Origin: Patescibacteria group bacterium
GTDB lineage: Bacteria > Patescibacteriota > Minisyncoccia > Phycocordibacterales > UBA918
NCBI GenBank assembly: GCA_019750255.1
Contig: JAIEOU010000006.1
Coordinates: 52,142 to 116,141 of the forward strand
Length of the DNA: 64,000 bases
Direction of reading: 5' to 3'
The translations under genes and the position numbers were made by a program. Shown here one piece after another: positions 1 through 36,817 of the stretch (positions are counted from its first letter, which is position 1; every line of letters begins with the position of its first letter). The notes beneath the pieces were generated by a model. It searched no databases and had not been told where the DNA came from. It saw nothing but the letters and a program-made list of their open reading frames with translations.

Positions 1-3000
1 GCGATAGTCTCCGCCCCAGCTGTCGAATTAAAACGAACCGTTCCGCCATTCGCAGCAAAGGTCGCGTCGTTATCAAACGAACCGCCAACTGAAAGAGTGC
101 CATTTGGAAACGTGGCATCCCCACCGGTTTCGAGTACAAAATTTCCGAGAATAACAGCGTTTGAGTCAGTAAACGTACGTTGTCGCCGCAACTCTTCCCC
201 GCTCACTGCATAGAAGGTGGTTGAACTTGCCTGATTATTGCGCTCTGTGGTCATCCAACCTCCGGTTCGCGCGACTGAAGCAATACGGAACTCATCGATG
301 CGACCATCATGGTATTGGGATGCCCCCAAACTACCCAAAGAGAAGCCGGTAAGAGTTGCGCTTGGGTCACCGGCCGCACTACTCGCAATAAACGCACCAT
401 CCAGGAAGATACTCATATTCCCACCTCCCGCTCCGGGCGATATCAAACCCATATGCGTCCACTTATCGCGGTACGATGCATAGGACGTCGTAACTCGTCC
501 TGGTACGCCAGCCGTTCCAAAGTCCCAATACAATACCGCGTCGCCCCATGGCCCATGTGCTGCAATGCGTTGTCCTCCACTTTCTGTAAACCCAAAGAGA
601 TTAGCATTTTTTGTTTCCGCAGTAGAAACATTATTCCAAGCAGTGACAGTAATGGTGTTAGAAGCATTTGGCCAGACAAAACCGGCATTTGCCAAATAGT
701 CATTCACACCATCAAAATCAATACCATTACCAAGGACGGCTGGTACGCTGTCGCTACCATCCATCGCACCAAACGAAGTCAAATTGCGTGCGTTCTGGGT
801 ACTGTCTACCATCAAGCCTGTCGGGATTGTTTCTAAGTGATACACCGCTTCGTAACCATTAGTCCACACGTTGTTTCTGCCAAACGTTGAACTGGCAGTA
901 TTTGTTGCAGCTGATGCATTACCGTAATAGACATAGAAGACCGTGTTCGTGGATGATGAAATTGTAGGCGCCTTAAAGTGAACCTCACCAGTTTTAGCCA
1001 CAGTATTAATTGCCACCACTTCAACCGGCACTTCGGTCACCCCATCTGCAGTCGTCATGCGAATATCACCCCCATCAGACCGTACCCCGCTGAAGAACGC
1101 GTCGGGTAGATTAGACAGATTAATGTAGACAGGAAAATCAGTGAGAGTTGTTGGCACTTGTGAACTCTGTACCGTTACTGAGATTCGCTTAGTCCAACCC
1201 GAGCCATACCACGATCCGCTAGATCCGCGAGTTCTAAGATTGTTAAAAGAAGAACCATTAGTGCTAACGGTATTAGCTTGCTGCACCAAAAGGATAACTT
1301 CGCCGTTGTTGTGGGCAAACACACCGGTTCCGGTAGTAAGAAAGTCTCCACCCACAGTCAAAGTACCGCCTGGGAACGTGACAGTTCCGGCAGTGATGCG
1401 GAAATTTCGTGAGGTGGTAGCTGCGCTTTCAGTAAAGCTCCAAGCGCCGGAACCGGTAAATACCAGATCATAGAAGGCATTATTAAATACAGTAGCTGAT
1501 TGCGTTATGGTGCGCCCCGCAACGGTTGATGTCATGCGCACTTCACCGTTGTTGTGAAGGAAAATTCCGTTATTAGTAAACGAACCAGCAATGGTTGTGG
1601 TGCCGGTCGGGAGCGTTACCGTGCCGGTAGCGATTGAAAGTGAACCAGACACCACCAAGGTAGCAGTTGCGAATGACCAGCTACTGCCAGCGCCAGTAAA
1701 CGAGAGATTATTAAACGCCGAAACCCCTCGACTGATCGTGCCACTCGTTGATGTTCCAACAAACGTTACGGTGCCCCCTTGCGCCACAAAGGCATTGTTA
1801 TTTGTCCAGTTTTGGAAAACGCTTATATTGAAGCCTGAACCTGAAGCATTGAGGGTGTCATCGCCACCAATCGTAACGCTTTGCGCACCGACATTAGCGC
1901 TCAGTGTAATAGTCTTGGCCGCACCATCGATTACTGCAAAGCCAATATTGGTACTAGAGGCCTTACTATCTCCCCATGTGTTACTTCCCGTGCCATCAAA
2001 CGTGGTAGTGGCGATTCCCGACATCGTACCACCGAAGCCAATTGCTAAGTTACCAGCAACTGTGATTGTCGAAGTTGCACGCGCCAAGGTGCCGTGGGTA
2101 ATCGTTAGAGAACCATTCACATCCAAACTTCGGGATAGAACGTAGCTTGCAGTACTCGATGCCTCTCCAAAACTGAGGTTAAAGAAGCTGTATTGAGTTC
2201 CCGTGGCAGTTAAAGTTTCCGTACCCGAGGTCGCGGTAAAAAGAATCGTTGACGTATCTTCGATGAAAGTCCCCTGCTGATTGTATGATCCGCTAATACG
2301 TAGCGTGTTCGTGGCCGGACGGAACGTACCGAAGTTCGCAAAGTCATGAGTTGCAACAAGGGCTCCTGGTTGATATACCGATCCGCTCCGCACTTTCAGT
2401 CGTCCGTCCCCACAGACCGCCTCTACACAAACAGTGAGCACATCCCCGACACCCACAGTGAAGAAAAGGTCCTCGTCATCGACGTTATCGAAACCAGCAA
2501 ACTGAGCATTGGTCGTCGTCGCACCATCATCGCTTCCTATAGTTAGATGGCGCTTGGTTAACTCCATATTTGTTACGTTACCAATACCATCATAGGTTGT
2601 GACGCCGACAGCTTCATTTGCATCGGTGGCACCATCGACAAAAACAGTTATTGTATCTCCGGCAAAAGCACTCACGTTACTAACCGACCAGGTTCCCGTG
2701 GCGGTAATCGATCCAGTCTTCCCTGCCTGGAGCACGCCGTTTACCGCAACGGCGACTGTACCACTCGTGGTGGTTGCAATCCCATCAAATTCACGCGCAC
2801 TTCCCGAAACAGTGATGCCTTCCGACCACTCAACTGCCCACTCATTTAGTGACGGACAGTTTCCTGCCACACAGATAAACTGAGCATCGAGTTGTAGCTC
2901 GTTGAATATCGAGGTGTCTAATGAAGAGATGTTAATCGGACCGCTCCCAAAACCTACACTATTGCCGGGCAGCACTGCGTCGGGAACAAGCGTAAACAAA

Positions 3001-6000
3001 CTGGTAGAAGCGCGGTAATACAACCGGTACTCAATCGTGCTGGCACCTGGGGTGGCCTCATTCAGGGTTATCTCTTCCCAGCGTGGACCGTCCCCATCGT
3101 CAAAGTCAATGCTTGTCGAACGCATTGATCCTCCCGTGAAAATTGGGTATGTGCGTGCCGCCATATTTGAGGCATTGGTGTACTCGGGATTTGCATCTTG
3201 GCTTGAGTTACCGGTAATGGTGGTAAGAGCACTAAAGCTTCCGGACCAGTCAGAGGCCAAAATGTCGTCATTCGTAAGAGCACCATCATCAAATGCGGTG
3301 ACATGTATCCGACCGTCTCCAGCGCGCACCACCTCCATTTCATATCCGTCAGGCATAGTACTAAGAGGAAGCTCTCCTGACAGCACCGTTGAAAATGTCT
3401 GATAAAACGAAAGCGTGCCGTTGTCTGAGTAGGTAATCATCAGGTTTCCATCCCGACCAGCAGCGGTTTCAAACGCACAATCAATAGGAAGCGCATTATT
3501 GCCGTTAGCAGCTACCGGTTCGACTTCAACCGGTGCATCCCATGATGATCCGTTCCAAAGAGCAAATCCGGAATTATTATCGTTATCAACATAACAGAGC
3601 GCCAAACGATCAGTCCCGACATCTGGCCGCAGTACGCCAAATTCCATATGATCACCAAGCGTTGCGCTACTAGCAACACTCCAGGCTGACCCGTTCCAAG
3701 TTCGAAAGAAAAGCGAGCCTGCTGCCGTTGAGGTGGTAGTTGAAACGACGAGAACGGCTTGATTGCCCGACTCTTCATAGGTGAGGGCCATACCTTCTGA
3801 TTCCGGCTCTACCAGTTCACCAAAGGTAGTAGTCGCAGTCCAGCTACTGCCATTCCATACCATTGCTTCGTAATCCACACCAGCAGCAACCGTGTGTCTA
3901 AAGACGGCAATAATTTCATCCGAAACCGGATCAGAAGCGGCGAGTACCCACTCACAGCTATTTGTATTTACCAGGTTGATTGAGGACGTTGCGGACCACG
4001 AGGTGCCATTCCAGATTGCATAGACTGCGTCAGTGCCAGCACAACTAATTGCCATCAAATCACCTGACGTGGTCTCATACGCAAGATCAACAGCGCGACG
4101 CTCGGCATTGACCACGTTATTAAAGAGCTCGAGGACGTTAGACCAGGTATCGGAGTCACTATTATATATCTGAACATTGACGTCGTTGTCGGTTCCAGTG
4201 GTACCGAGGGCATATTCCGGCCGGGTCGGAGCCGCTTTCAGTCGAACCGTCCGAACCTGAGCTCCAACACTTTCTGCTGTTTGTGCAGCATCCCAGGCTG
4301 TACCATTCCATAAACGATAACGCGGTGCCTGACCCGTCCCCTCACCATAGGTCACCATAACTTCATTCACCACCGTCGAAATCACGGCCGCGCCGGTGGT
4401 TGTAGAAATGTCTTCACGGCTATTGGTAGAGAATTGATCCCCGGTTGTTTGACTCCATACCGATGTTGTTATGGACGTATCAATCGTAAAGCTGCGTGGT
4501 GATGAATACCGAGTCCAGGTATCACTACCTCCAGGATCACGAGCCCGGACTCGCCACCAGTAGGTTGTACCGTTAAGGAGAGGACTTTGGAATTGATACC
4601 GAATTACATTCCCTGTCCTAAACGGAGATGTGTCAGAGCTCGATGCGGTGTTAATGAATCCGCCATCAATTCCCGACAAAAAGGTAGAGGACGAGGTAAA
4701 CAAGGGACTAGTGGATACTTGTACTTCATATCTAATATCTTGACTCTCTGGGTCAGTTGAAGAAAAGGTGACAGCCGGAGTAGTCGTTCCGGATTTTGCG
4801 TTATCAAATAACGTTACCAATGACGGTACAGTTGTCGTTTCTGCCCACGTCACAGTCCAAGCCTGGAGCCTTGGCACTGTGCTGTTTCCGGACAATACTG
4901 CCCTAATACGAAGCTCGTTATATGTAGAAGTGTTTAAGTTAGTCAGCGTTACTGGAGACGAGGTGAAGCCAGCACTGTTTCCAGGCAAGGCTGCATCAGG
5001 GACCAGTGCAAAAGTGTCCCCACCCACACGATACTCAATGTAATACCGAATAGAGCCAGACGTTACGTCGTGCACATAACTGAACGCTCCCCAAGCATTA
5101 CCCGTATCACGATCGTCGTAGTCAATAACGGAAGACGTTACGGTCGCTACTGTAAAACCACTATCGATACCCGTATCATTTGAACTCGTTGATACCACGG
5201 CATCGAATAGAATATTTGTGGCAAACTGCTCGCCGGTAGTCTGGAACCATGTGGTTATCGTAGTTCCGGAATTAACCGTAACACTGGTCGGAACTGACCA
5301 CTCACCGGTTGTATTTGAACCAAAATCATCACGACCCCTTACCCGCCACCAGTAGGTTGTATTGTTTGCGAGCGCAGCATTCGGAATAAAACGGATTGTT
5401 TGTCCGCTCGTATATTGACTACGTTCTGACGGATTAGAGAGGTTAGTAAACAATGCAAAGGTATCGACAGAGTTACGAGTGACTACCGGAGAGCTAAAGT
5501 CAGCCGAGTCATCAATCTCGATTTCATAGGAAATAAGATCACCAAGCGCATCATTGGCGTAAAACTCAAACCACGGTGACGTAGAAGCTGTCTGTTCGTT
5601 ATCAAAAGGGGCTTCATTAATCGGATTAGCTGGTGGCGCGTTGGTAATAAGACGCGGGTAATTCGTGTACGTATTTAGCGTAGCACCGTCGTTATAGACG
5701 AGCCGGAAACAATAGTTAGTATTTGCGGCTGCACCATTATTTTGTAGTGCAAAGTCCCACTCAGCATCGTTGCCGACAACAAGACCATTACGATTAGCAA
5801 GCGTAGGGTTACGTTCTTCATATGTCTCGGCGTAATCTGACGCAGACAAGACAGTGCTTGGCAACACTCTTCCGTCACCAATAAGCTCCTCAGATGAAAC
5901 CGCATAGAAACCGGTAGGATTTGACTGATTAGTTCTTTCAGTCAATATCCAGCCCGCTGATCGCTCAACAGACGCAATGCGGAACTCATCAATTCGACCA

Positions 6001-9000
6001 TCATGGTGATTTCCGCCAGTCGTAAGATCGCTACCGAGCGAAAAGCCGGTCAGGGCGACATTTGGATCATCTGAAATCGTCGAAGTGGCGACCGCAGTAC
6101 CATCTAAGTAGATACCCATAAACCCTGGTGTGGCTACACCGCGTGACACAAGCCCAATATGGGTCCACTTATTGCGAATGGCTGAGTAATTTGTCGTCAA
6201 TCGACCTCCGACACCACAGCAGGTACCATAATCCCAATAAAGCACCGCATCATTCCATGGCGCATGAGTTGCGAGTCGCTCAGTGCCCGACACATTAAAA
6301 CCAAACAGGCTCGCAGTCTTAGTTTCGGCTGTGGACACGTTGTTCCAAGCCGTCACAGTCACAGCATTAGAGGTATTCAGCCATGACCACGCAGTGTTAG
6401 TGAGTCGGTCATTAATCCCATCAAAATCGACACCGTTCCCCATCACACTACTGGTACTCTGGCTCCCCAACATACCACCATTAGTGGTTAGCGTTCTGCC
6501 ATTACTCGTACTATCCGTCAGGTTACTGGCAGGACTTGTCTCTAAGTGGTAAACCGCCTCGTAGCCATTAGTCCAAACATTATTTCGACCGAAGGGAGCG
6601 GTCACCGCATACCCTGAAGCCGACGGATTACCATAGTAAATATAGAACTCAGAATCAGTGCTTGTGGAGAGATCTCCCTTAAAATGAAGCTCACCCATTC
6701 TGGTTGTCGTATTAATCGATACCAGCTCAAATGGGACTTCGGTCAAGCCGTTACTCGTGGTCACTCGTATATCATCACCGTCCGACTGCACCTGAGTAAA
6801 GAAGGAGTCGGGTAGGTCATCGAGGTTTACATAGACCGGAAAATTTGTGATCACTCCACTTACGAGCGATTTGTTTACTGTGATTTTCAATCTTCGTAGC
6901 CACGACGCACTATACCAGTCACTACCAACAATACTATTTTCATAACCCCTCCATAGCGCTGTAGTCGAACTAGTATCTCCCACATCAGCCCACGCCAGGC
7001 CAGGACTACACGTAAAGCCTGGGGCATACTGCAATTTAAATTGCTCGGTCGATGTGGGTTGTATAACATTTGCCCCCCGAAGCGCGATTCGCAAACGAAT
7101 CGCTTCGCTATTACTGACCGCATAGCTCGAGTCAATAGCAGTACTTTCTGCGATGTCTACACCTCCTATAGGCCACGCATCGGTCGGTGTTAGGAAACTA
7201 CCATTGCTATACCAACGGTACGCACTTTGAATAAGTCGAGGTTCGCGAACCCACGACAATATCCAGTCTTCAAGGCTTGCCGACTCACTCCCCTGTGTCG
7301 TCAGGGTTGCTTCAAGACAAATTTGGCTGAACGTAGTCGTCGAAAGCCCAGTGAGGTTAATTGGGGACTGAGTGACATCAAATCCGGCACTGTTGCCCGA
7401 CAGGGCGCCGTTGGGCACATAAGTATCGCACGTCGTCGAGGCGGTATAGCGCAGTCGCAGCTTAACGTCGGTACCAAATGGCTCGCTGGTTGAAAACGTT
7501 ATATCTCCCCACGTCGCTTGGTTTGGTACAAAGTTGAAATTAATTATTGGAGTGCGCACAGTTCCTTGTACGAACTGGAAACGCTTAGCACTCATCGACA
7601 TCGCTTCATAGATACCTCCGGCTGGAATAACCGCCTCGAGTGTCTCGCTCGTTGTCCAACCGCTACCGTTCCAACGGGCAGTATCAAGACGATCATTCTC
7701 GTCGTCGTAATGGAGAGCCATCACAATACCATCGCTGGTACGCTCCGTTTGTACCCATAGCGCATCATTCATGTTTGATCCGGCTTGATTGGTTGTCCAG
7801 CTATTCGTTGTAGTCGAGAATGTTGCATGATAATCACCATCGACGCCCGTATCTGAGTACGGGGCAATGATATTGCCACTGCGTCCTGCCACCGTTTCGT
7901 ACTCACAGTCAATAGGCCGCCCGGTAATCGCGTTACCGGTAGTCGTCAACTCAGACGTCGCTGACCACACTCCCCCATCCCAACGAATTGCTCCGATGTC
8001 AGCATCGGCATCAACATAACAGAGCACAATGGCATCTGAGTCTGGATTTGGTGACAATGACGCATAGTATAGGTCATTTCCTATCCCCTGGGTCGTGTTA
8101 GCACTGAACTCTGATCCGTTCCAGGTGGTATAAGCAAAACTGGCCGCAGTGCCATTAGCCGCCACGATAAGCGCCTGCTCACCCGAACTTTCATAGACGA
8201 CGTCAACCCCCTCGGGCGCAACCGCGGGAGGGACACCAATAATTCGGTTATTCACCCAGGCTGTACCATCCCACACCATCGCCTCATACTGAGTGCCTGT
8301 GTCACGCACAACTACAATTATTTCGTCTGAGGTTGGATCTGAAGCGGCTTGAATGTAGTTACAGTTATTGAGTGAAGAGACGTCGATGGTACTCGTTGCG
8401 CTCCAGGACGAACCGTTCCAGATGCGAAACACTGGGTCCGCACCATTCGTGCACGAAATGGCCATGAGGTCTCCCGACAAACTTTCGTAGGTCAAGGCAA
8501 TACCGCGGTATATGTTACTCGTCAGGACGTTTGAAAGCAGCACTTGATTACCCCACGAACTACTTGAGGCTTGATAAATCTGCGCAAAGGCATCGTTTGA
8601 TTGATCAAGCGTTACCATCGCGTATTCATTACGATTGACTGCCGCTGCCGTTTCTACCCAATTTATGGTGTTACTTACCGCCACCGCATTTAACTCGAGA
8701 CCCCAACTCGTTCCATTCCACAAGCGATACCGAGGCGTCGCCACCGTACCCTCGGCATATGCCGCAAGCAATTCTTGATTGACTGTTGCATCAACCTGAA
8801 TACGATCATTTCCACTACTAACCGTGCCCACAAAACTATTTCCCTCAAACTGACCGTCAAAAGACTGGTACCAGTTAGGCACCGCCACGGCTAGATCCAC
8901 CGTCAGACTTTGTGTTACTGACCAATCACCATACTCCCCAGAGCCTGACACATCCCGGGCACGCACGCGCCAGTAGTAGGTAGCACGGTCAGTCAGGGCA

Positions 9001-12000
9001 TCAGCTGGTTGTAATTGGAATCGAATTGTTTCATTCTCATTGAACGGAGACGTATCTGTTGTTGAAGCAGTGTTGCGGAAACCGGCACTCGACGATGAAA
9101 AGCGAGTGATGCCGTTCGAGAAATCTGCACTGGTAGCAAGGGCAAACTCATAGGTAAGATTCGACGCCCCATCTGGATCAACCGACCTGAAATCAAAGAA
9201 CGGCGTTGTGGAGGCAAACCGAATGTTATCGAACGGGGTGTTAAACGTAGTCGGAGCCGCTGGGCGTTCATCGACGTCTAATTTCTTAGTCAGTGTAATT
9301 ACGGCATCAGTGACGTCATCGGTGGTAGCGTTTGCACCCTCCTGCTCTACCATCACGTTGATGGTGGCGCTAGCAGCAAGGTTCTCTAGCAGAAACACGA
9401 GCACGCCCGAGCTGTTGTCGTGTGCGTTCTGACCACGCACGTAATGTGATTTTGTTTGGGCACCAGATACAGCAACACCATTGACCTCGACCGTAATACG
9501 CGTATTTGCGTGCTGAGTACCCGAGATAAGGGCATTGTTGTAGGTGAGCAGATAGGTGCCGGCTTGATCAACAATAATATCGTCATTATTCGTCGTTGTT
9601 GAATGTGTAAAGGCGGCTTCATCTTTGATGACAGACGTATCAAACAGGAGCGACTCCCGCGGCGAATCACTCCAGTCAATACCTCCCGATAGGTTACGCC
9701 CGCGGAGCACAATCGTGTCGGCTGTGGTCATCTTTTCAATATAAATTGAACCAACAAAGCCGGTAGAGGTGGAAACAGTCACGGTTCCTGTATTTGCTTC
9801 ACGTTCTGCCGTGATCGTGAGCACCTGATTTGTGGTGGTTGCCACAACCACACCTGACCAATGCAGTGATGAATTAAAGTCGGCATCAGCATCTGCATTT
9901 GCTGCCGTATAAGCTTGCGAAAATACTCCACCAGAGACTTGCACGCCATTAAGAAGGACTCTGCCGAGAATATTCTGGTTTGAAGTAGTGTCGCCAGTAA
10001 CCGGGACACTCAGGTGAACCCGATAGGTGCCGGGGTTCAAAATAGTAATATTCTCCGGCGATATCGTATTTGAGTGTATATATCCAGCGTCTTGTCTCGT
10101 TTCGGTCCACTGGAACGGAAACGGGGTGACCTGATTGAGGTTCGTTGAGTTTGTGGTGCGCGTAGTGGTCGCCGCAAAAACATCATTGGTCGGCTGTACA
10201 TACTCAACGTACATACTCGCCTGCCCTGAAACATTAACAATATCGGTTACTTCAATTGTTCCAAGACCCTGCACCTGCACCGTTACCTCATCACCCGCCT
10301 GTGCGCCACTCAACATAAACTGAGCATGTGAAGACGATTCGGAATGACTATTGGCATTACGTATAAATCCACTCCGTCCAAGACCTTGCGGTACGGCCAC
10401 ACCATTTACACGCACCTCGACACCAACACGACTGCGACTGGCAGCACCGTCAGTTCGGGTCATCGGAAGCGTCACGGCCATGAAATAATCACCCGACTGT
10501 CTCAGGGTGACCGTCTGCGAGTTCGTAGAGGTTGAATGGGAAAAGTAATACGAGTCAACGGTCGAGGTGCTCCACTGTAGTGGGCTGGCGGCATTATTAA
10601 GGTTCGTACTGCCAACTGTTCTCGTTCCAGTAAACCACCCAATACCCGAAAGCGCGTCGGAAGCTATCTGCCAGCTACGCAATTCTCTAAAGCCATCCAT
10701 ATCCAGCGGACCGAGTAGGTAGGTATACGGACTAAGATCAGGAGCATCAAAGCGGTAGCTGAACGTCCGCTTTTCACCCTCCTTGAGTTCAACCGCTTTC
10801 CACACGAGCTCAGTAAAATCCGGTCGAGATACGACCTCAGCACCGCCAGTATCTTCAAACACAAAACCTCGGGGCACTCGCTCTACAATATCCCCGACAA
10901 AACTGCGACGCGCCTCCACCGTAATTGCAACGTCATACGCCGCCAACGGATAAATACGCGTAGGCGCGGTACGCTCAATGTCGAACGGAATATACTCATG
11001 CACCTCGAAGAAATCTTCGATTACATGAACAACGGAACCGGCAGCATTTCGGTGGGTTAGCTGAACGGTATACCGTCCAGGCGTGTTGGTGTCACCAAAC
11101 TGTGACTCGTAGTCTGGAATATTCGTCACGTTATTCTTCCCACAAGCTCCCGACTGCACAACCGGAACTTCAGATATTGCATTATTGGGATCAATAATTT
11201 TTAACTCAAGATTGGCATCACAAATTGTGTCGCCTCGATCAGTCAAGGCGGCCATCTGGAGACGCACCCGCTCTCCCGGTCCATACATCGTTTTTGTGCT
11301 ATTGACCGCCAGCACTCCCCAGTAAAATTCAAATGAATCTACATAAATATGGTCGTTTTCATTAATAGAAATTGAAAGCGCGTATTTCCCAGCAACGAGT
11401 TTCTGCGGGCGGCCCTTAAAGTGCACTATCCAGGTTGTCTCGTCATGATATTCGATAGATACAGGCACATCGACCACTTCGCCAAAAGCATCAGTCAGCC
11501 GTACTGAGTCAACGCTGTAGATGTTTTCACTAAAGACAGCATTCCACATCCGGCGTAAGAAGCCATCTTGGGGAGCGTAGCTGAGAGTAAACGATGGAAG
11601 CGAACTAAGCGTCTGATCAATGTCAGGATTATGCAGCCCATGGAACTTAGGCAGGGCCAAATCGCGCTCATAGGTTATCTGGTCAGTCGTACTCGCGAGA
11701 CTAGCATCCTCGTAAAAACTTCCCGCCGTCACCTCGAGCCAGACACTCTCCACATACGCCGACTCCATCGCCTCGAGGTTACCCTCAAAGACGACTCGCA
11801 CCTCTAAGTTGGATAAGTCCGCAAGCTGTGGTGGTGTTTCAAAAGAAATGAGGTAATAACCCCCGTTAATACCATTGGAAACTTCATCTTCTACATCAAT
11901 AATTGATGCGACTTTAAATTCAGTCGTACTACCGTATCTGAACTCAATAGAAAAGCGCTGGGGACCACTGTAATCCGTTGCTGAGTTTCTTTTTGCTGCT

Positions 12001-13049
12001 AAAGACAACCGCAGTTGAGCATTATCAAGAACACTAGCCCCATCAAACTCGGGTAGAGTAAAGCCACTGAAACTGACCGGGTACTTACCGCACCCATCCT
12101 CCGCCTCACAAGCCGGAATACTTGCAACAAACTCTCCTGCACCGAGTGCTGGTCCAGACGGTACAACGCTCGTCTCAGCTGGTGCGATTTCGTTGACATT
12201 CGCAACTTCGCTATCACCACCAGCTTCGTCTTCTCCATCTATACCCTCATCTGCGGAAAAACTTTCTATAGCTGAGGATTCCTCATCCACTACCGGAACG
12301 CTCTCCAGCTCACCATCAAGAACCAGAACCTCTTCATTCACGAGCGGTACTTCATTAGGCGCTAACAGCGCTGGTTCCGCAGTAATTTCGGTCGGTTCCG
12401 ATTGTGACTCGGCATCGACGGCTGCTTCAGACACTTCTTGGGCATGCGGAAAAACGCCCCGACTAGTGGGAAACACTCCCCACACTATCGACGAATCACT
12501 CGGTACTCTAACTTGTGGTTCGGTCACCGGATCTGGCGACGGCGCGGGCTGTGGTTCAGTGTCGCTCGGAACCTCATTCACCGACTCCTCCACAATAGGC
12601 TCGGGTCGTTCCGCTTGAGGTAGAGCGGCTGCATCGGGTTGTACCGACCCTTCACCTTCGCTCTCTTCCACAGGAACCTCTACTGACTGTCCGCCTTCCG
12701 AATAAACCGAATCAATCGATACGCCCACTCCCTCTCCCGATGGACTACCATCCAGAGCAGGGGCAGACTCATCACCCCCACTCTCATTAGAAATCTGAGG
12801 CGTGACCACGGGGTAGGCAGCATTACCAGCGTTGAACTCTTGATACAACGCATATTCGCCAACATCCTGAACGAGAACCGACTCGATACCGGTCCAACTT
12901 GTCGTCTCTACCACTCCAGGAATCAATACGAGTTCAGTGGTTGTGTATACCGTTGTATCAATCGTCGCGTATACCAAAATTCCTCCGATGAAACACGGTA
13001 TGAGCAGCACCCAAGCGTAGGTGTGAAGGAGGGCTTTTTTAATAGTCAC
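1..13049 (-). CDS. Giant secreted/surface adhesin-like protein (>4,340 aa, 3' end runs off the left window edge). It has an N-terminal signal anchor, an acidic Pro/Glu-rich linker, a DUF2341-like module plus a LamG-type jelly-roll, FN3-like modules ending in 'TYYWRVRARD', and many beta-propeller-like repeats with 'WNG[ST]xW' signatures.
   Basis: Hand translation of the minus strand from a GTG at ~13049 gives a continuous reading frame to position 1. The ORF track shows no minus-strand fragments in this frame, and that is what you would expect if the ORF is open at the window edge and therefore not reported. The N-terminus 'VTIKKALLHTYAWVLLIPCFIGGILVYA' is signal/TM-like. The motif 'FYIYYGNPSAS' fits DUF2341, and 'GRIDEFRIASVERSAGWI' fits a LamG_3 fold. 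The repeated 'TYYWRVRARD/TYWWRVRGRD' matches an FN3 C-terminal strand. Repeated 'RYRLWNGTSW', 'VFRIWNGSSWSAT' and 'AMVWNGSSWTA' appear as recurring ccgttcca/ccattcca motifs on the plus strand. An upstream in-frame stop sits at 13086-13088. Confidence 0.6.
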   Translation of the reverse strand, partial: MTIKKALLHTYAWVLLIPCFIGGILVYATIDTTVYTTTELVLIPGVVETTSWTGIESVLVQDVGEYALYQEFNAGNAAYPVVTPQISNESGGDESAPALDGSPSGEGVGVSIDSVYSEGGQSVEVPVEESEGEGSVQPDAAALPQAERPEPIVEESVNEVPSDTEPQPAPSPDPVTEPQVRVPSDSSIVWGVFPTSRGVFPHAQEVSEAAVDAESQSEPTEITAEPALLAPNEVPLVNEEVLVLDGELESVPVVDEESSAIESFSADEGIDGEDEAGGDSEVANVNEIAPAETSVVPSGPALGAGEFVASIPACEAEDGCGKYPVSFSGFTLPEFDGASVLDNAQLRLSLAAKRNSATDYSGPQRFSIEFRYGSTTEFKVASIIDVEDEVSNGINGGYYLISFETPPQLADLSNLEVRVVFEGNLEAMESAYVESVWLEVTAGSFYEDASLASTTDQITYERDLALPKFHGLHNPDIDQTLSSLPSFTLSYAPQDGFLRRMWNAVFSENIYSVDSVRLTDAFGEVVDVPVSIEYHDETTWIVHFKGRPQKLVAGKYALSISINENDHIYVDSFEFYWGVLAVNSTKTMYGPGERVRLQMAALTDRGDTICDANLELKIIDPNNAISEVPVVQSGACGKNNVTNIPDYESQFGDTNTPGRYTVQLTHRNAAGSVVHVIEDFFEVHEYIPFDIERTAPTRIYPLAAYDVAITVEARRSFVGDIVERVPRGFVFEDTGGAEVVSRPDFTELVWKAVELKEGEKRTFSYRFDAPDLSPYTYLLGPLDMDGFRELRSWQIASDALSGIGWFTGTRTVGSTNLNNAASPLQWSTSTVDSYYFSHSTSTNSQTVTLRQSGDYFMAVTLPMTRTDGAASRSRVGVEVRVNGVAVPQGLGRSGFIRNANSHSESSSHAQFMLSGAQAGDEVTVQVQGLGTIEVTDIVNVSGQASMYVEYVQPTNDVFAATTTRTTNSTNLNQVTPFPFQWTETRQDAGYIHSNTISPENITILNPGTYRVHLSVPVTGDTTSNQNILGRVLLNGVQVSGGVFSQAYTAANADADADFNSSLHWSGVVVATTTNQVLTITAEREANTGTVTVSTSTGFVGSIYIEKMTTADTIVLRGRNLSGGIDWSDSPRESLLFDTSVIKDEAAFTHSTTTNNDDIIVDQAGTYLLTYNNALISGTQHANTRITVEVNGVAVSGAQTKSHYVRGQNAHDNSSGVLVFLLENLAASATINVMVEQEGANATTDDVTDAVITLTKKLDVDERPAAPTTFNTPFDNIRFASTTPFFDFRSVDPDGASNLTYEFALATSADFSNGITRFSSSSAGFRNTASTTDTSPFNENETIRFQLQPADALTDRATYYWRVRARDVSGSGEYGDWSVTQSLTVDLAVAVPNWYQSFDGQFEGNSFVGTVSSGNDRIQVDATVNQELLAAYAEGTVATPRYRLWNGTSWGLELNAVAVSNTINWVETAAAVNRNEYAMVTLDQSNDAFAQIYQASSSSWGNQVLLSNVLTSNIYRGIALTYESLSGDLMAISCTNGADPVFRIWNGSSWSATSTIDVSSLNNCNYIQAASDPTSDEIIVVVRDTGTQYEAMVWDGTAWVNNRIIGVPPAVAPEGVDVVYESSGEQALIVAANGTAASFAYTTWNGSEFSANTTQGIGNDLYYASLSPNPDSDAIVLCYVDADADIGAIRWDGGVWSATSELTTTGNAITGRPIDCEYETVAGRSGNIIAPYSDTGVDGDYHATFSTTTNSWTTNQAGSNMNDALWVQTERTSDGIVMALHYDDENDRLDTARWNGSGWTTSETLEAVIPAGGIYEAMSMSAKRFQFVQGTVRTPIINFNFVPNQATWGDITFSTSEPFGTDVKLRLRYTASTTCDTYVPNGALSGNSAGFDVTQSPINLTGLSTTTFSQICLEATLTTQGSESASLEDWILSWVREPRLIQSAYRWYSNGSFLTPTDAWPIGGVDIAESTAIDSSYAVSNSEAIRLRIALRGANVIQPTSTEQFKLQYAPGFTCSPGLAWADVGDTSSTTALWRGYENSIVGSDWYSASWLRRLKITVNKSLVSGVITNFPVYVNLDDLPDSFFTQVQSDGDDIRVTTSNGLTEVPFELVSINTTTRMGELHFKGDLSTSTDSEFYIYYGNPSASGYAVTAPFGRNNVWTNGYEAVYHLETSPASNLTDSTSNGRTLTTNGGMLGSQSTSSVMGNGVDFDGINDRLTNTAWSWLNTSNAVTVTAWNNVSTAETKTASLFGFNVSGTERLATHAPWNDAVLYWDYGTCCGVGGRLTTNYSAIRNKWTHIGLVSRGVATPGFMGIYLDGTAVATSTISDDPNVALTGFSLGSDLTTGGNHHDGRIDEFRIASVERSAGWILTERTNQSNPTGFYAVSSEELIGDGRVLPSTVLSASDYAETYEERNPTLANRNGLVVGNDAEWDFALQNNGAAANTNYCFRLVYNDGATLNTYTNYPRLITNAPPANPINEAPFDNEQTASTSPWFEFYANDALGDLISYEIEIDDSADFSSPVVTRNSVDTFALFTNLSNPSERSQYTSGQTIRFIPNAALANNTTYWWRVRGRDDFGSNTTGEWSVPTSVTVNSGTTITTWFQTTGEQFATNILFDAVVSTSSNDTGIDSGFTVATVTSSVIDYDDRDTGNAWGAFSYVHDVTSGSIRYYIEYRVGGDTFALVPDAALPGNSAGFTSSPVTLTNLNTSTYNELRIRAVLSGNSTVPRLQAWTVTWAETTTVPSLVTLFDNAKSGTTTPAVTFSSTDPESQDIRYEVQVSTSPLFTSSSTFLSGIDGGFINTASSSDTSPFRTGNVIRYQFQSPLLNGTTYWWRVRARDPGGSDTWTRYSSPRSFTIDTSITTSVWSQTTGDQFSTNSREDISTTTGAAVISTVVNEVMVTYGEGTGQAPRYRLWNGTAWDAAQTAESVGAQVRTVRLKAAPTRPEYALGTTGTDNDVNVQIYNSDSDTWSNVLELFNNVVNAERRAVDLAYETTSGDLMAISCAGTDAVYAIWNGTSWSATSSINLVNTNSCEWVLAASDPVSDEIIAVFRHTVAAGVDYEAMVWNGSSWTATTTFGELVEPESEGMALTYEESGNQAVLVVSTTTSTAAGSLFFRTWNGSAWSVASSATLGDHMEFGVLRPDVGTDRLALCYVDNDNNSGFALWNGSSWDAPVEVEPVAANGNNALPIDCAFETAAGRDGNLMITYSDNGTLSFYQTFSTVLSGELPLSTMPDGYEMEVVRAGDGRIHVTAFDDGALTNDDILASDWSGSFSALTTITGNSSQDANPEYTNASNMAARTYPIFTGGSMRSTSIDFDDGDGPRWEEITLNEATPGASTIEYRLYYRASTSLFTLVPDAVLPGNSVGFGSGPINISSLDTSIFNELQLDAQFICVAGNCPSLNEWAVEWSEGITVSGSAREFDGIATTTSGTVAVAVNGVLQAGKTGSITATGTWSVSNVSAFAGDTITVFVDGATDANEAVGVTTYDGIGNVTNMELTKRHLTIGSDDGATTTNAQFAGFDNVDDEDLFFTVGVGDVLTVCVEAVCGDGRLKVRSGSVYQPGALVATHDFANFGTFRPATNTLRISGSYNQQGTFIEDTSTILFTATSGTETLTATGTQYSFFNLSFGEASSTASYVLSRSLDVNGSLTITHGTLARATSTITVAGNLAIGFGGTMSGIATTTFDGTGSNTWGDSKASSTNIGFAVIDGAAKTITLSANVGAQSVTIGGDDTLNASGSGFNISVFQNWTNNNAFVAQGGTVTFVGTSTSGTISRGVSAFNNLSFTGAGSSWSFATATLVVSGSLSIATGTVTLPTGTTTIAGSFTNNGIFLHNNGEVRMTSTVAGRTITQSATVFNNAFYDLVFTGSGAWSFTESAATTSRNFRITAGTVTFPGGTLTVGGDFLTTGTGVFAHNNGEVILLVQQANTVSTNGSSFNNLRTRGSSGSWYGSGWTKRISVTVQSSQVPTTLTDFPVYINLSNLPDAFFSGVRSDGGDIRMTTADGVTEVPVEVVAINTVAKTGEVHFKAPTISSSTNTVFYVYYGNASAATNTASSTFGRNNVWTNGYEAVYHLETIPTGLMVDSTQNARNLTSFGAMDGSDSVPAVLGNGIDFDGVNDYLANAGFVWPNASNTITVTAWNNVSTAETKNANLFGFTESGGQRIAAHGPWGDAVLYWDFGTAGVPGRVTTSYASYRDKWTHMGLISPGAGGGNMSIFLDGAFIASSAAGDPSATLTGFSLGSLGASQYHDGRIDEFRIASVARTGGWMTTERNNQASSTTFYAVSGEELRRQRTFTDSNAVILGNFVLETGGDATFPNGTLSVGGSFDNDATFAANGGTVRFNSTAGAETI

Positions 13050-13101
13050 GTTACACAACCACCGCACTCCAAATGGAATGAGGGGCTATTTTAAATTATA
13101 A

Positions 13102-13135
13102 GCGACACGCCTCCCAGAAATGGGAGGCGTGTCGC
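13102..13135. terminator. Intrinsic terminator hairpin (stem gcgacacgcctccca / tgggaggcgtgtcgc, loop gaaa) flanked by A/T-rich sequence. It lies downstream of the cohesin-like gene and immediately upstream of the giant gene start.
   Basis: Perfect 15-bp inverted repeat seen directly in the sequence. The minus-strand side is followed by ttataatttaaaat. Confidence 0.6.
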
Positions 13136-13161
13136 TAAATTCTGGGGATGAATCCAGAAAC

Positions 13162-14706
13162 TTACTTTAGTATTGATTTTACATCACTGATTTCCTTTTC
13201 AATCAATGTTTCAGACACTTCAAGCGCCTGGGTCAATCCTTCAACTGCAATGCGCTCGTTCTTGGAGAGTCGCTTCTGCTTGGTGATCATATTTACCTGA
13301 TCATAGATTTCGTCTCGTAGCGCTGAGAATATTTTCTCCATTTGATCTTGAATCTCTCGCGTCTCCTTGCGCAATTTCTCTTCCTTAATACGCAGTTGCT
13401 TACGTTCATACCACATATATATGAGCTGTAATATCACGACAACAATGAGGAAGAAAATGAGGAGATTGACCGCGGTGAAGTAATCCCAAATCGACGTCAC
13501 GTCCTCTACTTCAAGCGGTTTGACCCAGCCTGACTGAATGAGTACCGCCTTGCTTCCCTCTCGCTTGTTGCCCGCCTTGTCGAATGCATCAATCTTTACA
13601 GTGTAGGTCCCATCCTCTAATTCCTTAAGTAGGTATCCGAGCTTAGCTTCATCTGGAGTAACTCTAATTGGTTCCTTGTCAGCAATCGTCATCTCGTAGT
13701 AATCAATCCCTGAAGTGACGTCCATCGCTTCAAAGGTAAGAAGTGGGAAGTCGGTCGGTAGCGTGCCGGGTACTACCAGTATTTCAAACGGTTCAGGTGG
13801 CGTGGTATCGATGCGTAGCTTTCGGTTAAGGATTCCGCCCCACCCAACTTGGTTCTGATACTGAATGCTAAAATATTGTTCACCATCGACAATCAGACCC
13901 TTATTAATGACAAACTCATCAATTGGTGGGTCATAAATCGCGTTTTGGTTCTTTGAGGGATCGTTATCTGACGAGGTGGCAATTTCAATCGCTACAGCAG
14001 TCACATCAAACGGCAATGTCCAAGTAAACACGCCGTCAGTTGATTTGTACCAAATCTCAGGATCGAGGAAGATTTGTGAACCGACTTCAGGAGCCCGTGG
14101 GGGATCTCCAAAGATAATCGCCTCTTCGCTTTCCTCCTCTTCTGCTTCTGGCTCTGCTGTTGGTGTGGCGGGAGGAGTTGCAGGCGGTGGCGGAGTGGCG
14201 GTAGCACTAATGGTAAAACTGCCCTGCGTCGAGTTTTCAAATACGTCCGTCCCCCGACCATCAGCCGCCAGCACCGAAGCACTAGAGAACGTAACAGCTG
14301 CGGTACCAGCCGCAACAGTTCGGAACGTAACGTTAATTAAATTTGATGTAGCAGTAAAGGGTGTGGGGCTACCACCACCAAAAGTAACAGTACCGGCAGT
14401 GTTTGAAAACGCAGGCTCAGTTGTCCATAAAGAAAATACCGAACCGTCTTTACTGACACTCACCACACTGAGAAGAGTGGGGTCGAACTTCAGTGCGGCT
14501 TCAACCGCGTTTACATTTGCACCACCGGGCGCCACACGAATGGTGGCGGTGAACGTCTGGCCAATGTTGTACGTACCCGTCGACGGTGCGATCACAACGT
14601 CAGCAGCAAAAACCGGGTTAACCCACACATGCGCTGCAGCGATGAATAAAAAAGCAACAAACAGATTTATGCAGACCTTACGTGATAAAGAAAAGAACGA
14701 AGTCAT
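13162..14706 (-). CDS. Cohesin-like domain membrane protein. It has a signal peptide, an N-terminal cohesin/Ig-like beta-sandwich, a Pro/Thr then Glu-rich linker, a second extracellular domain, a single TM helix and a cytoplasmic coiled-coil tail.
   Basis: The 514-aa ORF includes 'IGQTFTATIRVAPGGANVNAVEAALKFDPTLLSVVSVS', which matches the cohesin-domain pattern. The linker is 'TPPPPATPPATPTAEPEAEEEESEE'. The TM helix is 'AVNLLIFFLIVVVILQLIYMWY', followed by a K/E-rich heptad tail. Confidence 0.7.
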   Translation of the reverse strand: MTSFFSLSRKVCINLFVAFLFIAAAHVWVNPVFAADVVIAPSTGTYNIGQTFTATIRVAPGGANVNAVEAALKFDPTLLSVVSVSKDGSVFSLWTTEPAFSNTAGTVTFGGGSPTPFTATSNLINVTFRTVAAGTAAVTFSSASVLAADGRGTDVFENSTQGSFTISATATPPPPATPPATPTAEPEAEEEESEEAIIFGDPPRAPEVGSQIFLDPEIWYKSTDGVFTWTLPFDVTAVAIEIATSSDNDPSKNQNAIYDPPIDEFVINKGLIVDGEQYFSIQYQNQVGWGGILNRKLRIDTTPPEPFEILVVPGTLPTDFPLLTFEAMDVTSGIDYYEMTIADKEPIRVTPDEAKLGYLLKELEDGTYTVKIDAFDKAGNKREGSKAVLIQSGWVKPLEVEDVTSIWDYFTAVNLLIFFLIVVVILQLIYMWYERKQLRIKEEKLRKETREIQDQMEKIFSALRDEIYDQVNMITKQKRLSKNERIAVEGLTQALEVSETLIEKEISDVKSILK

Positions 14707-15555: not shown

Positions 15556-17466
15556 TCAACCGGTCCAATTGAATAGCAGAATCGAGAAGTCGGTCAAGTT
15601 TACCCGCGTATCGCCGTTTATATCAGCCGGAGGACTGGAATCACCACCACTGGTAGACCACCAGAAGAGGAGAATAGAGAAGTCGGTCAAGTTAACCCGA
15701 CCGTCAGTATTCAAATCCGCGTTCATGCGACGGTCCGCTGTTTCCCCCACTCCGTAGAGTGTGTAGTTAGAAAAATTGGTTGCCAAGGTACCCTCTCCAA
15801 CCGCCCGCGCTCGAACTTTATACGTTCCGTTTGAAAATCCGGCCGTATCGAGTGGAATTGACCAAGCCCCGCCAGCGTCACTTGTTGCGGTTAGGACCTT
15901 ACGCGACGCGACACTTCCCTGCTTTTCGTTTTCAATGGTAATAGTGGCGTTAGGCATTGCATAACCCGACAACGTAGCCGCCGTTCCCGGCGTAACTGGA
16001 TCGGGGGAAACCTTAATCGATGGGGCGACATTAATATTCGAAAGCGCTGTGGTGCGGGCACCACTTACGGTGAACGACGTACTGAACGTACTGGACTTAA
16101 CTTGAGCCGCATCGGTAGCAAACACACCGAATGTGTACACTCCCCGCGCAATCTGGTCTATCGTGGCCGAGTACGAGCCTGTATTTCCAGCGGTTACCTG
16201 AGCAGCTTGTTTACCATCAACCAACACAGTGACCCTCGCTCGCGGAAACGCAAAACCAGTGATTTCTACCCGACCGTCCCCACTGCGGAAAGGTCCGTCG
16301 GTAGACTCAAAGCCTCCTCCAGCCGTGCTCCCGGAACCAGGTCCACGTCCACCCCCACCCCCACCCCCGGCCCCGCCCGTTCCCGACGACCCACCAAGTT
16401 CCGGAGCCTCGCCGTTGGACTCGCCGGTGGTTCCTCCAGCTCCACCTCCATCTCCCGTTCCATTATTACCTTGACCGCTACCATCACCAGAAACCGCACC
16501 GGCAGTGTTAGCCTGACCAGTCGGAACGTCGTTTACGGAAAACTGAATCAAGAAGTCATCGGTGTTAAAGTTCCCTTCATCATCCATACAGCGCACGTAG
16601 TAACGCTGCACCGAATTTGGAATGATTGTAACAATGGTGGAATGGAAAATGAGTCCCGTATTTGCGAACGTTGACGGCATGGCACCATAGGCGACGCTCG
16701 AGGAAGCGGAAAACTTACAAATCGCTAACTCATCAGTTTCTAGACTTATTTCTACACTAAGGGTTGTCCCACCCACCGTACTCGTTGGAGTGGGATTAAA
16801 ACGAAATGGAGGGATGGTTTCAGTTGTATCAACAGGACCGACCCCCACGCGTTCAACGATGGCAATTGAAAAACCGGCGTTGGCAACTTCTGTACCGTCA
16901 TAAATCCGAACATCCACCACGTGCGTTCCCGCCACACTACTATTCACCACTCCTGGTGTATCTTCAGGGGTCGTGGACGTGCCGGTAGTGGTACTAAATG
17001 ATTCACTAAAAACCGAAGACATTGACGTGTGGTCACCAATCTTTAACTCTAGCCTACTCCCGGCTGAAAGACCGACTGTTGGTTCCAGTGTGTACCGGAT
17101 CATTCCCGGTGTTCCCGGAAAAATTTCAACCTGGTCAACACCTGGTGAAGCGACCACGTCCGCCGTGCGCAGGGTGCCATCCACAATCAGCTCGACGTTG
17201 CGCTCATTAAATGAGCTACTGGCAATCACCTCAAACCCGGGCGGCGGTACGACCTCGATGTAGCCACCGGGAGATACGGCCGTATCGAGACGAAAGGCAA
17301 GAGTATGGTTAGCCAGGAAGGTTGGGGCGGAGGTTGAAATCGTATCTTTGTATTCGTTGATATTGCGCGCCTGTAATAATCCGGGAAATAGCGAAAAGGC
17401 CCAGATAAAAGCTAAAAAACTACAGGCAAATAATCCCGCCCATAATTTAGCGACTGTACTTCTCAT
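15556..17466 (-). CDS. Dockerin-containing secreted surface protein (signal peptide, beta-sandwich domains, Gly-rich linker, C-terminal type-I dockerin with two Ca-binding repeats)
   Basis: The C-terminus carries 'ADLNTDGRVNLTDFSILLFWW' and 'ADINGDTRVNLTDFSILLFNWTG', which is the dockerin duplicated DxNxDGxVNxxD repeat. The Gly-rich linker is 'GGGAGGTTGESNGEAPELGGSSGTGGAGGGGGGG'. The start is set at the internal Met 'MRSTVAKLWAGLFACSFLAFIWAFSL' (signal peptide, rc ATG at 17464-17466). The ORF track's upstream Met at 17565 adds 33 non-signal residues. Confidence 0.75.
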   Translation of the reverse strand: MRSTVAKLWAGLFACSFLAFIWAFSLFPGLLQARNINEYKDTISTSAPTFLANHTLAFRLDTAVSPGGYIEVVPPPGFEVIASSSFNERNVELIVDGTLRTADVVASPGVDQVEIFPGTPGMIRYTLEPTVGLSAGSRLELKIGDHTSMSSVFSESFSTTTGTSTTPEDTPGVVNSSVAGTHVVDVRIYDGTEVANAGFSIAIVERVGVGPVDTTETIPPFRFNPTPTSTVGGTTLSVEISLETDELAICKFSASSSVAYGAMPSTFANTGLIFHSTIVTIIPNSVQRYYVRCMDDEGNFNTDDFLIQFSVNDVPTGQANTAGAVSGDGSGQGNNGTGDGGGAGGTTGESNGEAPELGGSSGTGGAGGGGGGGRGPGSGSTAGGGFESTDGPFRSGDGRVEITGFAFPRARVTVLVDGKQAAQVTAGNTGSYSATIDQIARGVYTFGVFATDAAQVKSSTFSTSFTVSGARTTALSNINVAPSIKVSPDPVTPGTAATLSGYAMPNATITIENEKQGSVASRKVLTATSDAGGAWSIPLDTAGFSNGTYKVRARAVGEGTLATNFSNYTLYGVGETADRRMNADLNTDGRVNLTDFSILLFWWSTSGGDSSPPADINGDTRVNLTDFSILLFNWTG

Positions 17467-17675
17467 ATATATGTATTGTACCGTGCTACAAAACGAAACC
17501 ACCCCGTCATGCACAGTGAGCAGAAGCAAGGAGGGCGAAGGACGACTATTGTTTTGCTTATGCAAGCGCTTCAGCAGATTCTACTTTTAAGAGGAGAATA
17601 TGCTGGTAGCGACTTGCCTAGTAAAGTGAGTTATGTGTGACAATAGCAACACATCGGCCGATGCACTAGAAACTC

Positions 17676-19469: not shown

Positions 19470-19481
19470 TCATCTTTCACC

Positions 19482-21112: not shown

Positions 21113-21150
21113 ACTTCATAGTATAGCGCGACCTTAGTCCTGAACGACCA

Positions 21151-36598: not shown

Positions 36599-36817
36599 AT
36601 GACTAAAAGCTCGTTCATTTTTAGGTTCGCCGGACACTGCGTAGTGGCAATTGCACTAGTCTTTACCGTGGTTGCCTCTTTCTACTATTTTGATCGTCCA
36701 ATTTACAAGGTTGTATCGTTATTCATTGGACTCGTGTTCATCTCTAACGCTATCGCTAGAGCTGCACTAATACTGCTCATGTATCAACACAGAGATACCT
36801 CCTTAGCGCAGAAGTAG
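36599..36817 (+). CDS. Small two-TM membrane protein, paralogue of 33541..33843
   Basis: 72-aa ORF with an AAGGA RBS 3 nt upstream. 'YKVVSLFIGLVFISNAIARAAL' aligns to 'YKIVVVFLSLIILSNCAAKLYG' of the other copy. Confidence 0.5.
   Translation: MTKSSFIFRFAGHCVVAIALVFTVVASFYYFDRPIYKVVSLFIGLVFISNAIARAALILLMYQHRDTSLAQK

Follow-up and report, generated by a model that had tools for sequence, protein, structure and literature searches.

Giant surface proteins and adhesive fibres have been described in several bacteria that live on or with other cells. The ten longest proteins of Vampirococcus lugosii, with 1392-4163 amino acids (aa), are giant membrane proteins for which a role in host recognition or attachment was proposed (Moreira et al. 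2021, PMC8080830). Omnitrophota harbour giant genes encoding large multi-domain extracellular proteins in which beta-helix filaments and repeated dockerin domains occur (West-Roberts et al. 2023, bioRxiv 10.1101/2023.11.21.568195). Transposon sequencing (Tn-seq) of a cultivated Saccharibacterium revealed that both type IV pili and several adhesins are required for epibiotic growth, and that the essential envelope proteins include lectin-like and dockerin-domain proteins (PMC10633639). In Bdellovibrio, the homotrimeric TNF-like tips of the mosaic adhesive trimer (MAT) fibres bind N-acetylglucosamine (GlcNAc) and lipopolysaccharide (LPS) in inter-protomer pockets (Caulton et al. 2024, PMC10769870). 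Here we describe a giant surface-protein gene located on the minus strand at positions 1-13049 of a stretch of 64,000 nucleotides from contig JAIEOU010000006.1 (hereafter the window), which belongs to a member of the Paceibacteria. To our knowledge, the attachment of Paceibacteria, a huge uncultivated group, to their partners is almost wholly uncharted.

Giant multi-domain surface proteins of Patescibacteria (also candidate phyla radiation, CPR) are an established, little-studied class, to which the window protein belongs: it is longer than 1000 aa, possesses a predicted membrane or secretion signal and adhesion-type domains, and is encoded in a CPR genome. We propose, with a probability of roughly 0.6, that it is an N-terminally tethered, multivalent, lectin-like adhesin. 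This reading is favoured by its binding modules, by the conservation pattern among orthologs and by the precedent of the class (PMC8080830, PMC10633639).

The giant gene and its orthologs

The window encodes the N-terminal 4349 codons (~62%) of the gene, supported by a stop-free frame and by collinear orthologs. Translation of positions 1-13049 confirmed the single continuous frame claimed in the original prediction, running from the GTG at 13049 to the window edge, where the last full codon ends at position 3, with zero in-frame stops. In each of the remaining five frames, 139-399 stops were counted over these 13,049 bases, and no more than 77-199 codons in a row are open. Estimated from base composition, a stop-free run of 4349 codons would occur by chance with a probability of ~1e-95. 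The open reading frame (ORF) track for this region shows nothing beyond ORFs of 108-184 aa, because the ORF list omits ORFs running off the source; the claim that a giant gene open at the edge had been left out was therefore correct. ORF tracks that drop edge-open frames can make 13 kb of the window's most interesting gene look empty.

A profile search covering 1.84 billion cluster representatives retrieved two orthologs of full length, P0056 with 7083 aa and P0047 with 7169 aa. Residues 7-4427 of P0056 align to aa 5-4349 of the window protein with 44% identity, and P0047 is likewise collinear. Species-representative genomes and metagenomes added more than a dozen collinear loci with 42-73% identity; in all, more than 15 collinear orthologs (43-73%) were found, including loci L002-L009 and L080-L084. 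The closest loci are 71% (species-representative genomes) and 73% (metagenomes) identical. The length of the gene was taken from the orthologs, using an alignment of 14 sequences that also served for the identity per module. The ten orthologs with their 3' end on the contig continue for 2638-2665 aa past the column of the window edge; thus the gene is expected to have ~21 kb and ~7000 aa, of which the window would hold the N-terminal 62%. The frame of >13 kb given originally is real, and by orthology the gene is much longer than that. In the orthologs, the part that corresponds to the missing C-terminus comprises additional repeat modules, another two DUF2341 stretches and, at its end, a Cys-rich domain; in the C-terminal half of ortholog L002, DUF2341 was detected with 83.9 bits in 2 stretches. 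The gene is real, and its size and domain order are conserved.

Orthologs are present at about one locus per Patescibacteria genome. The nearest giant-gene loci are found in metagenome-assembled genomes (MAGs) labelled Paceibacteria, Parcubacteria, Kaiserbacteria or Patescibacteria. TypA/BipA, encoded in the window at 49501-51285, is 84-91% identical to proteins of Candidatus Pacebacteria, Paceibacteria, Parcubacteria, Nomurabacteria and Patescibacteria group. Judged by these identities, the organism is a Paceibacteria-class (Patescibacteria/CPR) bacterium. This is in line with the episymbiotic ultra-small type of bacterium that had been suggested; the close orthologs of the giant gene all lie in Patescibacteria MAGs.

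Most orthologs carry an insertion of ~520 aa with poly-glycine runs (…VTVKAWGAGGGAGGGG…) at window aa ~3450. Its carriers are L002 (~6940-8500, ortholog aa ~2313-2832), L003, L005, L008, L081-L083 and P0059, and it is absent from the window protein, L006, L009 and L001. An ALK-type glycine-rich domain was considered for this insertion and was not supported by the Pfam scan of L002. In L001, on the JGI contig Ga0558126_00705 with conserved synteny, the giant-gene ortholog starts with ~5.8 kb (5219-10986) that were called as eight short genes, followed by a product of 5128 aa. The arrangement suggests frameshifts from assembly errors, or else a decaying or phase-variable copy. Locus L009 shows a frame change near the contig start.

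Triple TNF/C1q-like module

Three tandem TNF/C1q-like jelly-roll domains (TNFx3; aa 816-1250, positions 9300..10604) were recognised by internal repeats of ~145 aa together with AlphaFold2 and Foldseek; the original prediction had overlooked them. The AlphaFold2 model of TNFx3 has a pLDDT of 87.9 and a pTM of 0.90. Its top Foldseek match in the PDB is an engineered single-chain APRIL-BAFF-BAFF (4zch; E 2e-24, TM 0.69/0.75), and the second is an engineered single-chain C1q globular head (5hzf; E 1.5e-20, TM 0.64/0.72). Each repeat superposes on the monomers of 4-1BBL, EDA, APRIL and BAFF, with TMt 0.63-0.77. The predicted model displays the characters of the TNF/C1q superfamily, namely ten-strand jelly rolls of ~130-150 aa arranged in a bell-shaped trimer. 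At the level of sequence families, the Pfam TNF match of the window segment was borderline (22.6 bits vs a cut-off of 23), and BclA_C was found in the homolog P0033 (41.6 bits vs a cut-off of 38).

Because the three domains together superpose on engineered single-chain trimers, TNFx3 is predicted to be a natural single-chain TNF/C1q-like pseudo-trimer. Natural members of the TNF/C1q superfamily form a trimer of separate chains, whereas in TNFx3 the trimer is predicted to form within one chain. Such a trimer would have three non-identical pockets between its domains, and if this is true, each of them could evolve independently towards a ligand of its own.

A word-indexed search revealed nine TNFx3 homologs, mostly of 490-710 aa, several of them with Big_6/Big_13 domains. 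The N-terminus of these homologs is short and hydrophobic, often with Cys, and by our own reading of the alignment they appear lipoprotein-like. Three tandem repeats fill the C-terminal part of the homologs, with the exception of P0040, which is a partial sequence. The genomic context of homolog P0035 was uninformative.

Predicted WNG propellers

The window protein possesses two predicted propeller regions built of WNG repeats. WNG propeller 1 (aa 1426-1825, positions 7575..8774) consists of eight blades of ~50 aa and of two alternating types, and WNG propeller 2 (aa 2895-3290, positions 3180..4367) is 40% identical to it. The motif W[ND]G[ST] was observed 10 times, compared to 0.22 expected. 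These repeats had been described as propeller-like, and the AlphaFold2 model of the WNG region (pLDDT 85.8, pTM 0.86) is indeed a beta-propeller, with radial four-stranded blades whose number equals that of the sequence repeats; the region is thus predicted to form an eight-bladed propeller. The best Foldseek matches of the model are bacterial and fungal fucose lectins (E 5e-13 to 1e-9). The match to fucose-binding propeller lectins (E 5e-13, TM 0.54/0.68, 11-16% identity) is a likeness of fold alone.

Matches to Kelch, WD40, FG-GAP, BNR, Fungal_lectin or PilY1/PilC were absent from aa 1426-1825 and 2895-3290 in Pfam and NCBIfam. The lone match in the WNG region was a DUF2510 motif of 35 positions, with 25.1 bits summed and no single stretch significant. 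The WNG repeat had originally been placed outside any family that could be named, in agreement with our finding that the region falls outside the curated families of Pfam and NCBIfam. The repeat was also considered as Kelch or BNR/Asp-box, and this was dropped, as Pfam gave no support for it in the window sequence.

A WNG profile of 398 positions matched 6453 cluster representatives (50% identity) at E<=1e-3, of which 1756 at E<=1e-30, in proteins of ~430-7900 aa. Among 28 WNG homologs, the N-terminus carries PilX_N in three, N_methyl in three and T2SSJ in one. One family member shows a weak Pfam Fungal_lectin match. The genomic contexts of four stand-alone WNG homologs were inspected. One of the genes stands in an operon with T2SSE (ATPase), T2SSF and a pilin gene, which immediately precede it, another is located inside an operon with T2SSE, T2SSF, pilin, PilM-N-O and secretin genes, and a third follows two pilin-like genes (pilus-cluster loci L158 6001-7719, L159 6001-8187 and L160 6001-7611). 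Pilus genes were absent from the context of the archaeal WNG protein P0014. The WNG domain is repeatedly joined to type IV filament proteins, a classic place for an adhesin. These contexts suggest that the stand-alone WNG proteins are an unannotated family of pilus-associated propeller proteins.

The WNG propeller with its link to type IV pili and the predicted single-chain TNF/C1q-like trimer are the parts of the protein that go beyond expectation, and both may deserve curation as domain families. The joint proposal, in which the WNG propeller would be a widespread, uncurated lectin-like adhesion domain and TNFx3 a natural single-chain pseudo-trimer, both of them new adhesion modules, is tentative, and the odds are against it holding as a whole. 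If true, the protein family would set host range in Paceibacteria.

LamG, FN3-like and repeat modules

Two DUF2341+LamG (Laminin_G_3) modules are present, at aa 2051-2400 (positions 5850..6899) and at aa 3951-4300 (positions 150..1199). Laminin_G_3 (PF13385) was detected with 55.7 bits (cut-off 27.6) in 2 stretches, the best at aa 2224-2368, covering profile positions 14-150 of 151. DUF2341 (PF10102) reached 36.4 bits (cut-off 23.4) in its best stretch at aa 3992-4055. Both families exceed their Pfam cut-offs, as was to be expected from the DUF2341+LamG module of the original prediction. Between the two DUF2341 copies, of which the first lies at aa ~2052-2198, the identity is 57%, and the complete modules share 57-61% identity with each other. 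Module 2 is 59-73% identical to the orthologs.

Three FN3-like domains are located at aa 1251-1395 (positions 8865..9299), aa 2481-2600 (positions 5250..5609) and aa 2746-2870 (positions 4440..4814). The first was assigned by Ig_Rha78A_N and the motif TYYWRVRARD, and the other two by internal repeats and the motif, which in the form Y[YW]WRV[RQ] has three occurrences (aa 1358, 2566 and 2830). Ig_Rha78A_N (PF25788) was found with 50.9 bits (cut-off 27.4) in 2 stretches. Classical fn3 (PF00041) reached 14.5 bits against a cut-off of 25, in one sub-segment. The FN3-like modules claimed earlier thus stand by their Ig_Rha78A_N match and their motif, but not as classical fn3; since the fn3 cut-off was missed, FN3-like is used here as a label for a fold class and not for membership in PF00041.

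Internal repeats also revealed three copies of a further domain, named domX. Copy 1 together with the segment that follows it is beta-rich (aa 1826-2050, positions 6900..7574) and has 60-62% mean identity to the orthologs. Copy 2 spans aa 2601-2745 (positions 4815..5249) and copy 3 aa 3291-3440 (positions 2730..3179), with the paralogous stretches at aa 2632-2760 and 3293-3436. The block formed by FN3-like, WNG and domX modules is duplicated, with 33-49% identity between the copies. No significant PDB or Pfam match was found for domX. Profile matches to the phage lambda tail tube in PDB sequences (E ~0.005) were taken as chance.

A Gly/Thr/Ser-rich repeat region at aa 3441-3950 (positions 1200..2729), found by its internal repeats, has 59% mean identity to the orthologs. 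Its periodicity looks like that of a beta-solenoid or beta-helix. No Pfam or PDB match was obtained for this region, including by profile search of PDB sequences. The start of the next repeat region (aa 4301-4349, positions 3..149) is cut at the window edge. Towards the N-terminus, aa 331-815 (positions 10605..12059) comprise beta-rich domains with weak Pfam matches, including an MG2-like Ig domain at aa ~586-670; under relaxed Pfam settings this part gave hints below the cut-off alone, to MG2 (19.5-22.4 bits) and Wzt_C. Relaxed Pfam scans of the unassigned segments yielded sub-threshold hints to MG2, Wzt_C and Endotoxin_C, and nothing more. The giant protein gave zero NCBIfam matches and zero phmmer matches among PDB sequences. 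In Rfam, no match was found anywhere in the window.

N-terminal segment and linker

A Kyte-Doolittle scan revealed a sole strongly hydrophobic segment at aa 7-32 (positions 12954..13031). It is followed by an acidic, Pro/Ser/Val-rich low-complexity linker at aa 36-330 (positions 12060..12944) with a net charge of -56 and contents of 15% E and 10% P. A signal anchor and an acidic linker had both been predicted, and a hydrophobic N-terminal segment and the linker were recovered. The linker is the least conserved part of the protein, with ~30% identity to the orthologs. Similar to the window protein, P0056 and P0047 possess the same lone N-terminal hydrophobic segment, and none at the C-terminus.

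Judged by its orthologs, the protein does not fall into the sortase-anchored (LPXTG) class. The LPXTG motif is absent from four ortholog C-termini (…FTAISAD, …FTPVSP), while the C-terminus of the window protein itself lies outside the window, and P0056 and P0047 lack a C-terminal hydrophobic segment. Neither does it fall into the type IV pilin-like class, as N_methyl and PilX_N matches were absent from the window protein in Pfam. Export by the Sec pathway with an N-terminal tether, or release, is suggested by three features: a hydrophobic segment is present at the N-terminus, further transmembrane segments are absent, and the orthologs have no sortase signal.

Proposed role and alternative explanations

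We infer the surface location, the tethering, the adhesive role and the type of ligand from the domain types, the context and literature precedent. In the proposed arrangement, the protein would be exported by Sec via its lone N-terminal hydrophobic segment, and would probably be tethered to the membrane by this segment, or else released there. The acidic Pro-rich linker of ~300 aa would span the wall, and beyond it a chain of beta-rich modules would extend outwards, with Ig/FN3-like spacers interleaved with binding-type heads. The heads would be the TNF/C1q-like pseudo-trimer, the two eight-bladed WNG propellers and the two (more by orthology) DUF2341+LamG modules, and they would bind glycans or proteins on the surface of a host or partner cell. 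In the 14-sequence alignment, TNFx3 (46%) and the propellers (47-48%) are the globular parts with the lowest mean identity across orthologs, compared to 53-62% for the FN3-like, domX and repeat-region modules. This pattern fits variable heads that determine specificity on a conserved stalk. A conserved surface protein of ~7000 aa would be a candidate determinant of host range, with modules that can be expressed for glycan arrays.

Several points weigh against an adhesin of this kind. The gap in identity between heads and spacers is modest. About one third of the sequence (domX, aa 331-815 and the repeat region) was left without fold assignment after the Pfam and PDB searches, and the distal 38% of the protein lies beyond the window and is known from orthologs alone. 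Furthermore, the segment at aa 7-32 would fit a signal anchor or an uncleaved or cleaved Sec signal alike.

The same modules could also build a structural envelope or fibre protein, serving as a coat, spacer or protective layer without specific recognition of a partner, the domains being used for self-assembly or wall attachment. The highly conserved domain order and length of the orthologs, the numerous Ig/FN3 spacer-type modules and the adjoining genes for other surface proteins (cohesin, dockerin and Big domains) are compatible with such a coat, and the giant proteins of Vampirococcus were also credited with the fibrous look of the cell surface (PMC8080830). We consider this explanation unlikely, given that type IV pilus clusters repeatedly encode pilin-like proteins with a WNG propeller, that TNF-like heads are adhesive tips in other bacteria and that the heads diverge faster than the spacers. 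A cellulosome-like scaffold for the capture or degradation of polysaccharides is quite improbable. It would feed the cell by means of the LamG, propeller and beta-helix-like modules, which would bind polysaccharide from the environment or from prey and might also cleave it, and may assemble with the neighbouring cohesin and dockerin proteins. The cohesin and dockerin/Big_6 genes are located directly upstream in conserved synteny, GH18 and GT2 genes are present within the window, the FN3-like domains are similar to the domain found at the N-terminus of GH78 rhamnosidases, and for the giant genes of Omnitrophota a role in the degradation of cell walls was proposed (bioRxiv 10.1101/2023.11.21.568195). 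However, neither the giant protein nor the C-terminal part of L002 gave any catalytic, cohesin or dockerin domain, and a terminator hairpin separates the giant gene from the cohesin gene.

An origin as a prophage or phage-derived receptor-binding fibre is very improbable. Phage fibres commonly contain TNF-like heads and beta-helix-like repeats, and a Peptidase_S74 motif of tail-fibre chaperones closes another large ORF of the window (54492-61346). In contrast, the giant protein lacks an S74 domain of its own and starts with a membrane segment followed by an acidic linker, its synteny with HSP20 and ABC-transporter genes is conserved, about one ortholog locus is present per Patescibacteria genome, and no phage structural or replication genes were found among the 17 window ORFs scanned against Pfam. 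Finally, the region is not non-coding or decayed DNA in which the long frame would be an accident or a pseudogene. The short ORFs of the ORF track and the fragmentation of ortholog L001 into many short genes across its first ~5.8 kb could be read in that way, but this reading is excluded by the negligible chance (~1e-95) of such a stop-free frame, by protein-level identity of 43-73% across thousands of residues at more than 15 loci, and by confident fold predictions for two segments. The tethered, multivalent adhesin remains the reading that we prefer.

Start region and neighbouring genes

The frame of the giant gene is closed upstream by an in-frame TAG at 13086..13088 (minus strand), found by sequence inspection where the original prediction had placed a stop. 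Besides the GTG at 13049, alternative in-frame starts are a TTG at 13058, 9 nt after GGAG, and a GTG at 13067. A start at TTG 13058 would match the length of the N-terminus of ortholog P0056. The start codon is GTG 13049 or possibly TTG 13058. The terminator hairpin reported beside the start was located at 13101..13136 (minus strand), behind the upstream cohesin-domain gene, with a 16-bp stem and a 4-nt loop, followed by TATAATTTAA. A perfect TATAAT is present at 13095-13100 (minus strand), directly after the terminator stem, with ~46 nt between it and the GTG downstream; the giant gene might have its own promoter there, with this hexamer as the -10 box. The promoter scan at 13095-13100 reported no full site and detected no matching -35.

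Immediately upstream of the giant gene lies a gene for a cohesin-domain protein (13162-14706, minus strand), and further upstream a gene for a protein with Big_6 and dockerin domains (15556-17565, minus strand). A search for sequences identical to the cohesin-domain protein gave no match. L001 keeps the upstream order of ABC transporter, Big_6/dockerin protein, HSP20 and cohesin protein. The cohesin and dockerin neighbours may represent a surface assembly in this Patescibacterium. Directly downstream of the giant gene, locus L002 encodes a protein of 497 aa (19152-20645, plus strand) with a hydrophobic N-terminus and, by eye, several FN3-like repeats, which may be a conserved partner of the giant protein; the corresponding part of the contig lies beyond the window.

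The window is unusually rich in envelope proteins. Three tandem paralogous genes at 19482-22002 (minus strand) encode FGE-sulfatase (SUMF1-like) domain proteins of 274-283 aa beside an ABC exporter. The genes at 31526-33004, 36803-38311, 39803-41296 and 27246-28499 (all minus strand) have putative products of the cell surface or of glycan metabolism, namely two DUF11 proteins, a protein with DUF642 and InlB B-repeats, and a chitinase-like GH18 protein. Besides the giant gene, the window contains another very large ORF of 2284 aa (54492-61346, minus strand), which possesses Kelch-like matches and a Peptidase_S74 motif near the C-terminus (aa 2090-2135). This motif is of the tail-fibre/endosialidase chaperone type and recalls Bdellovibrio MAT fibres and phage tailspikes. 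The ORF that precedes it (61359-63941, minus strand; 860 aa) gave zero Pfam matches.

Comparison with known systems

Similar to the MAT proteins of Bdellovibrio, which lives on other bacteria, the window protein would present a TNF/C1q-like jelly-roll head on a long surface fibre. However, MATs are homotrimers of ~1000 aa in which every chain has a single TNF domain, located at the C-terminal tip, some of them ending in S74, whereas the window protein has three tandem TNF-like domains in one chain, near the N-terminal third. With S74 absent and the TNF-like domains internal and tandem, it does not belong to the MAT fibre class.

The best Foldseek matches of the WNG propeller, the seven-bladed PLL/PHL lectins of Photorhabdus and the six-bladed AAL-type fungal fucose lectins, have Trp-rich blades of ~50 aa in common with it. 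PilY1-type and minor-pilin propeller adhesins share their position in pilus clusters with the stand-alone WNG proteins, which carry PilX_N or N_methyl N-termini. The propeller of PilY1 is seven-bladed. In contrast to these adhesins, the WNG regions gave no PilY1/PilC Pfam match and the window protein is without a pilin-like N-terminus.

The giant proteins of Omnitrophota are likewise very large extracellular proteins of ultra-small, host-dependent or predatory bacteria. Their length reaches tens of thousands of residues, and they are linked to the breakdown of cell walls, whereas no enzymatic or dockerin domain was found in the window protein. Vampirococcus also encodes very long membrane-associated multi-domain proteins, with propellers and fibronectin/Ig-type domains, in an ultra-small Patescibacterium. 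It belongs to the Absconditabacteria, while the organism described here is a member of the Paceibacteria, and the window protein is longer, with ~7000 aa by orthology. Compared by description, the domain sets are WD40, PKD, DUF11 and integrin in Vampirococcus, and WNG propeller, TNFx3 and DUF2341+LamG in the window protein.

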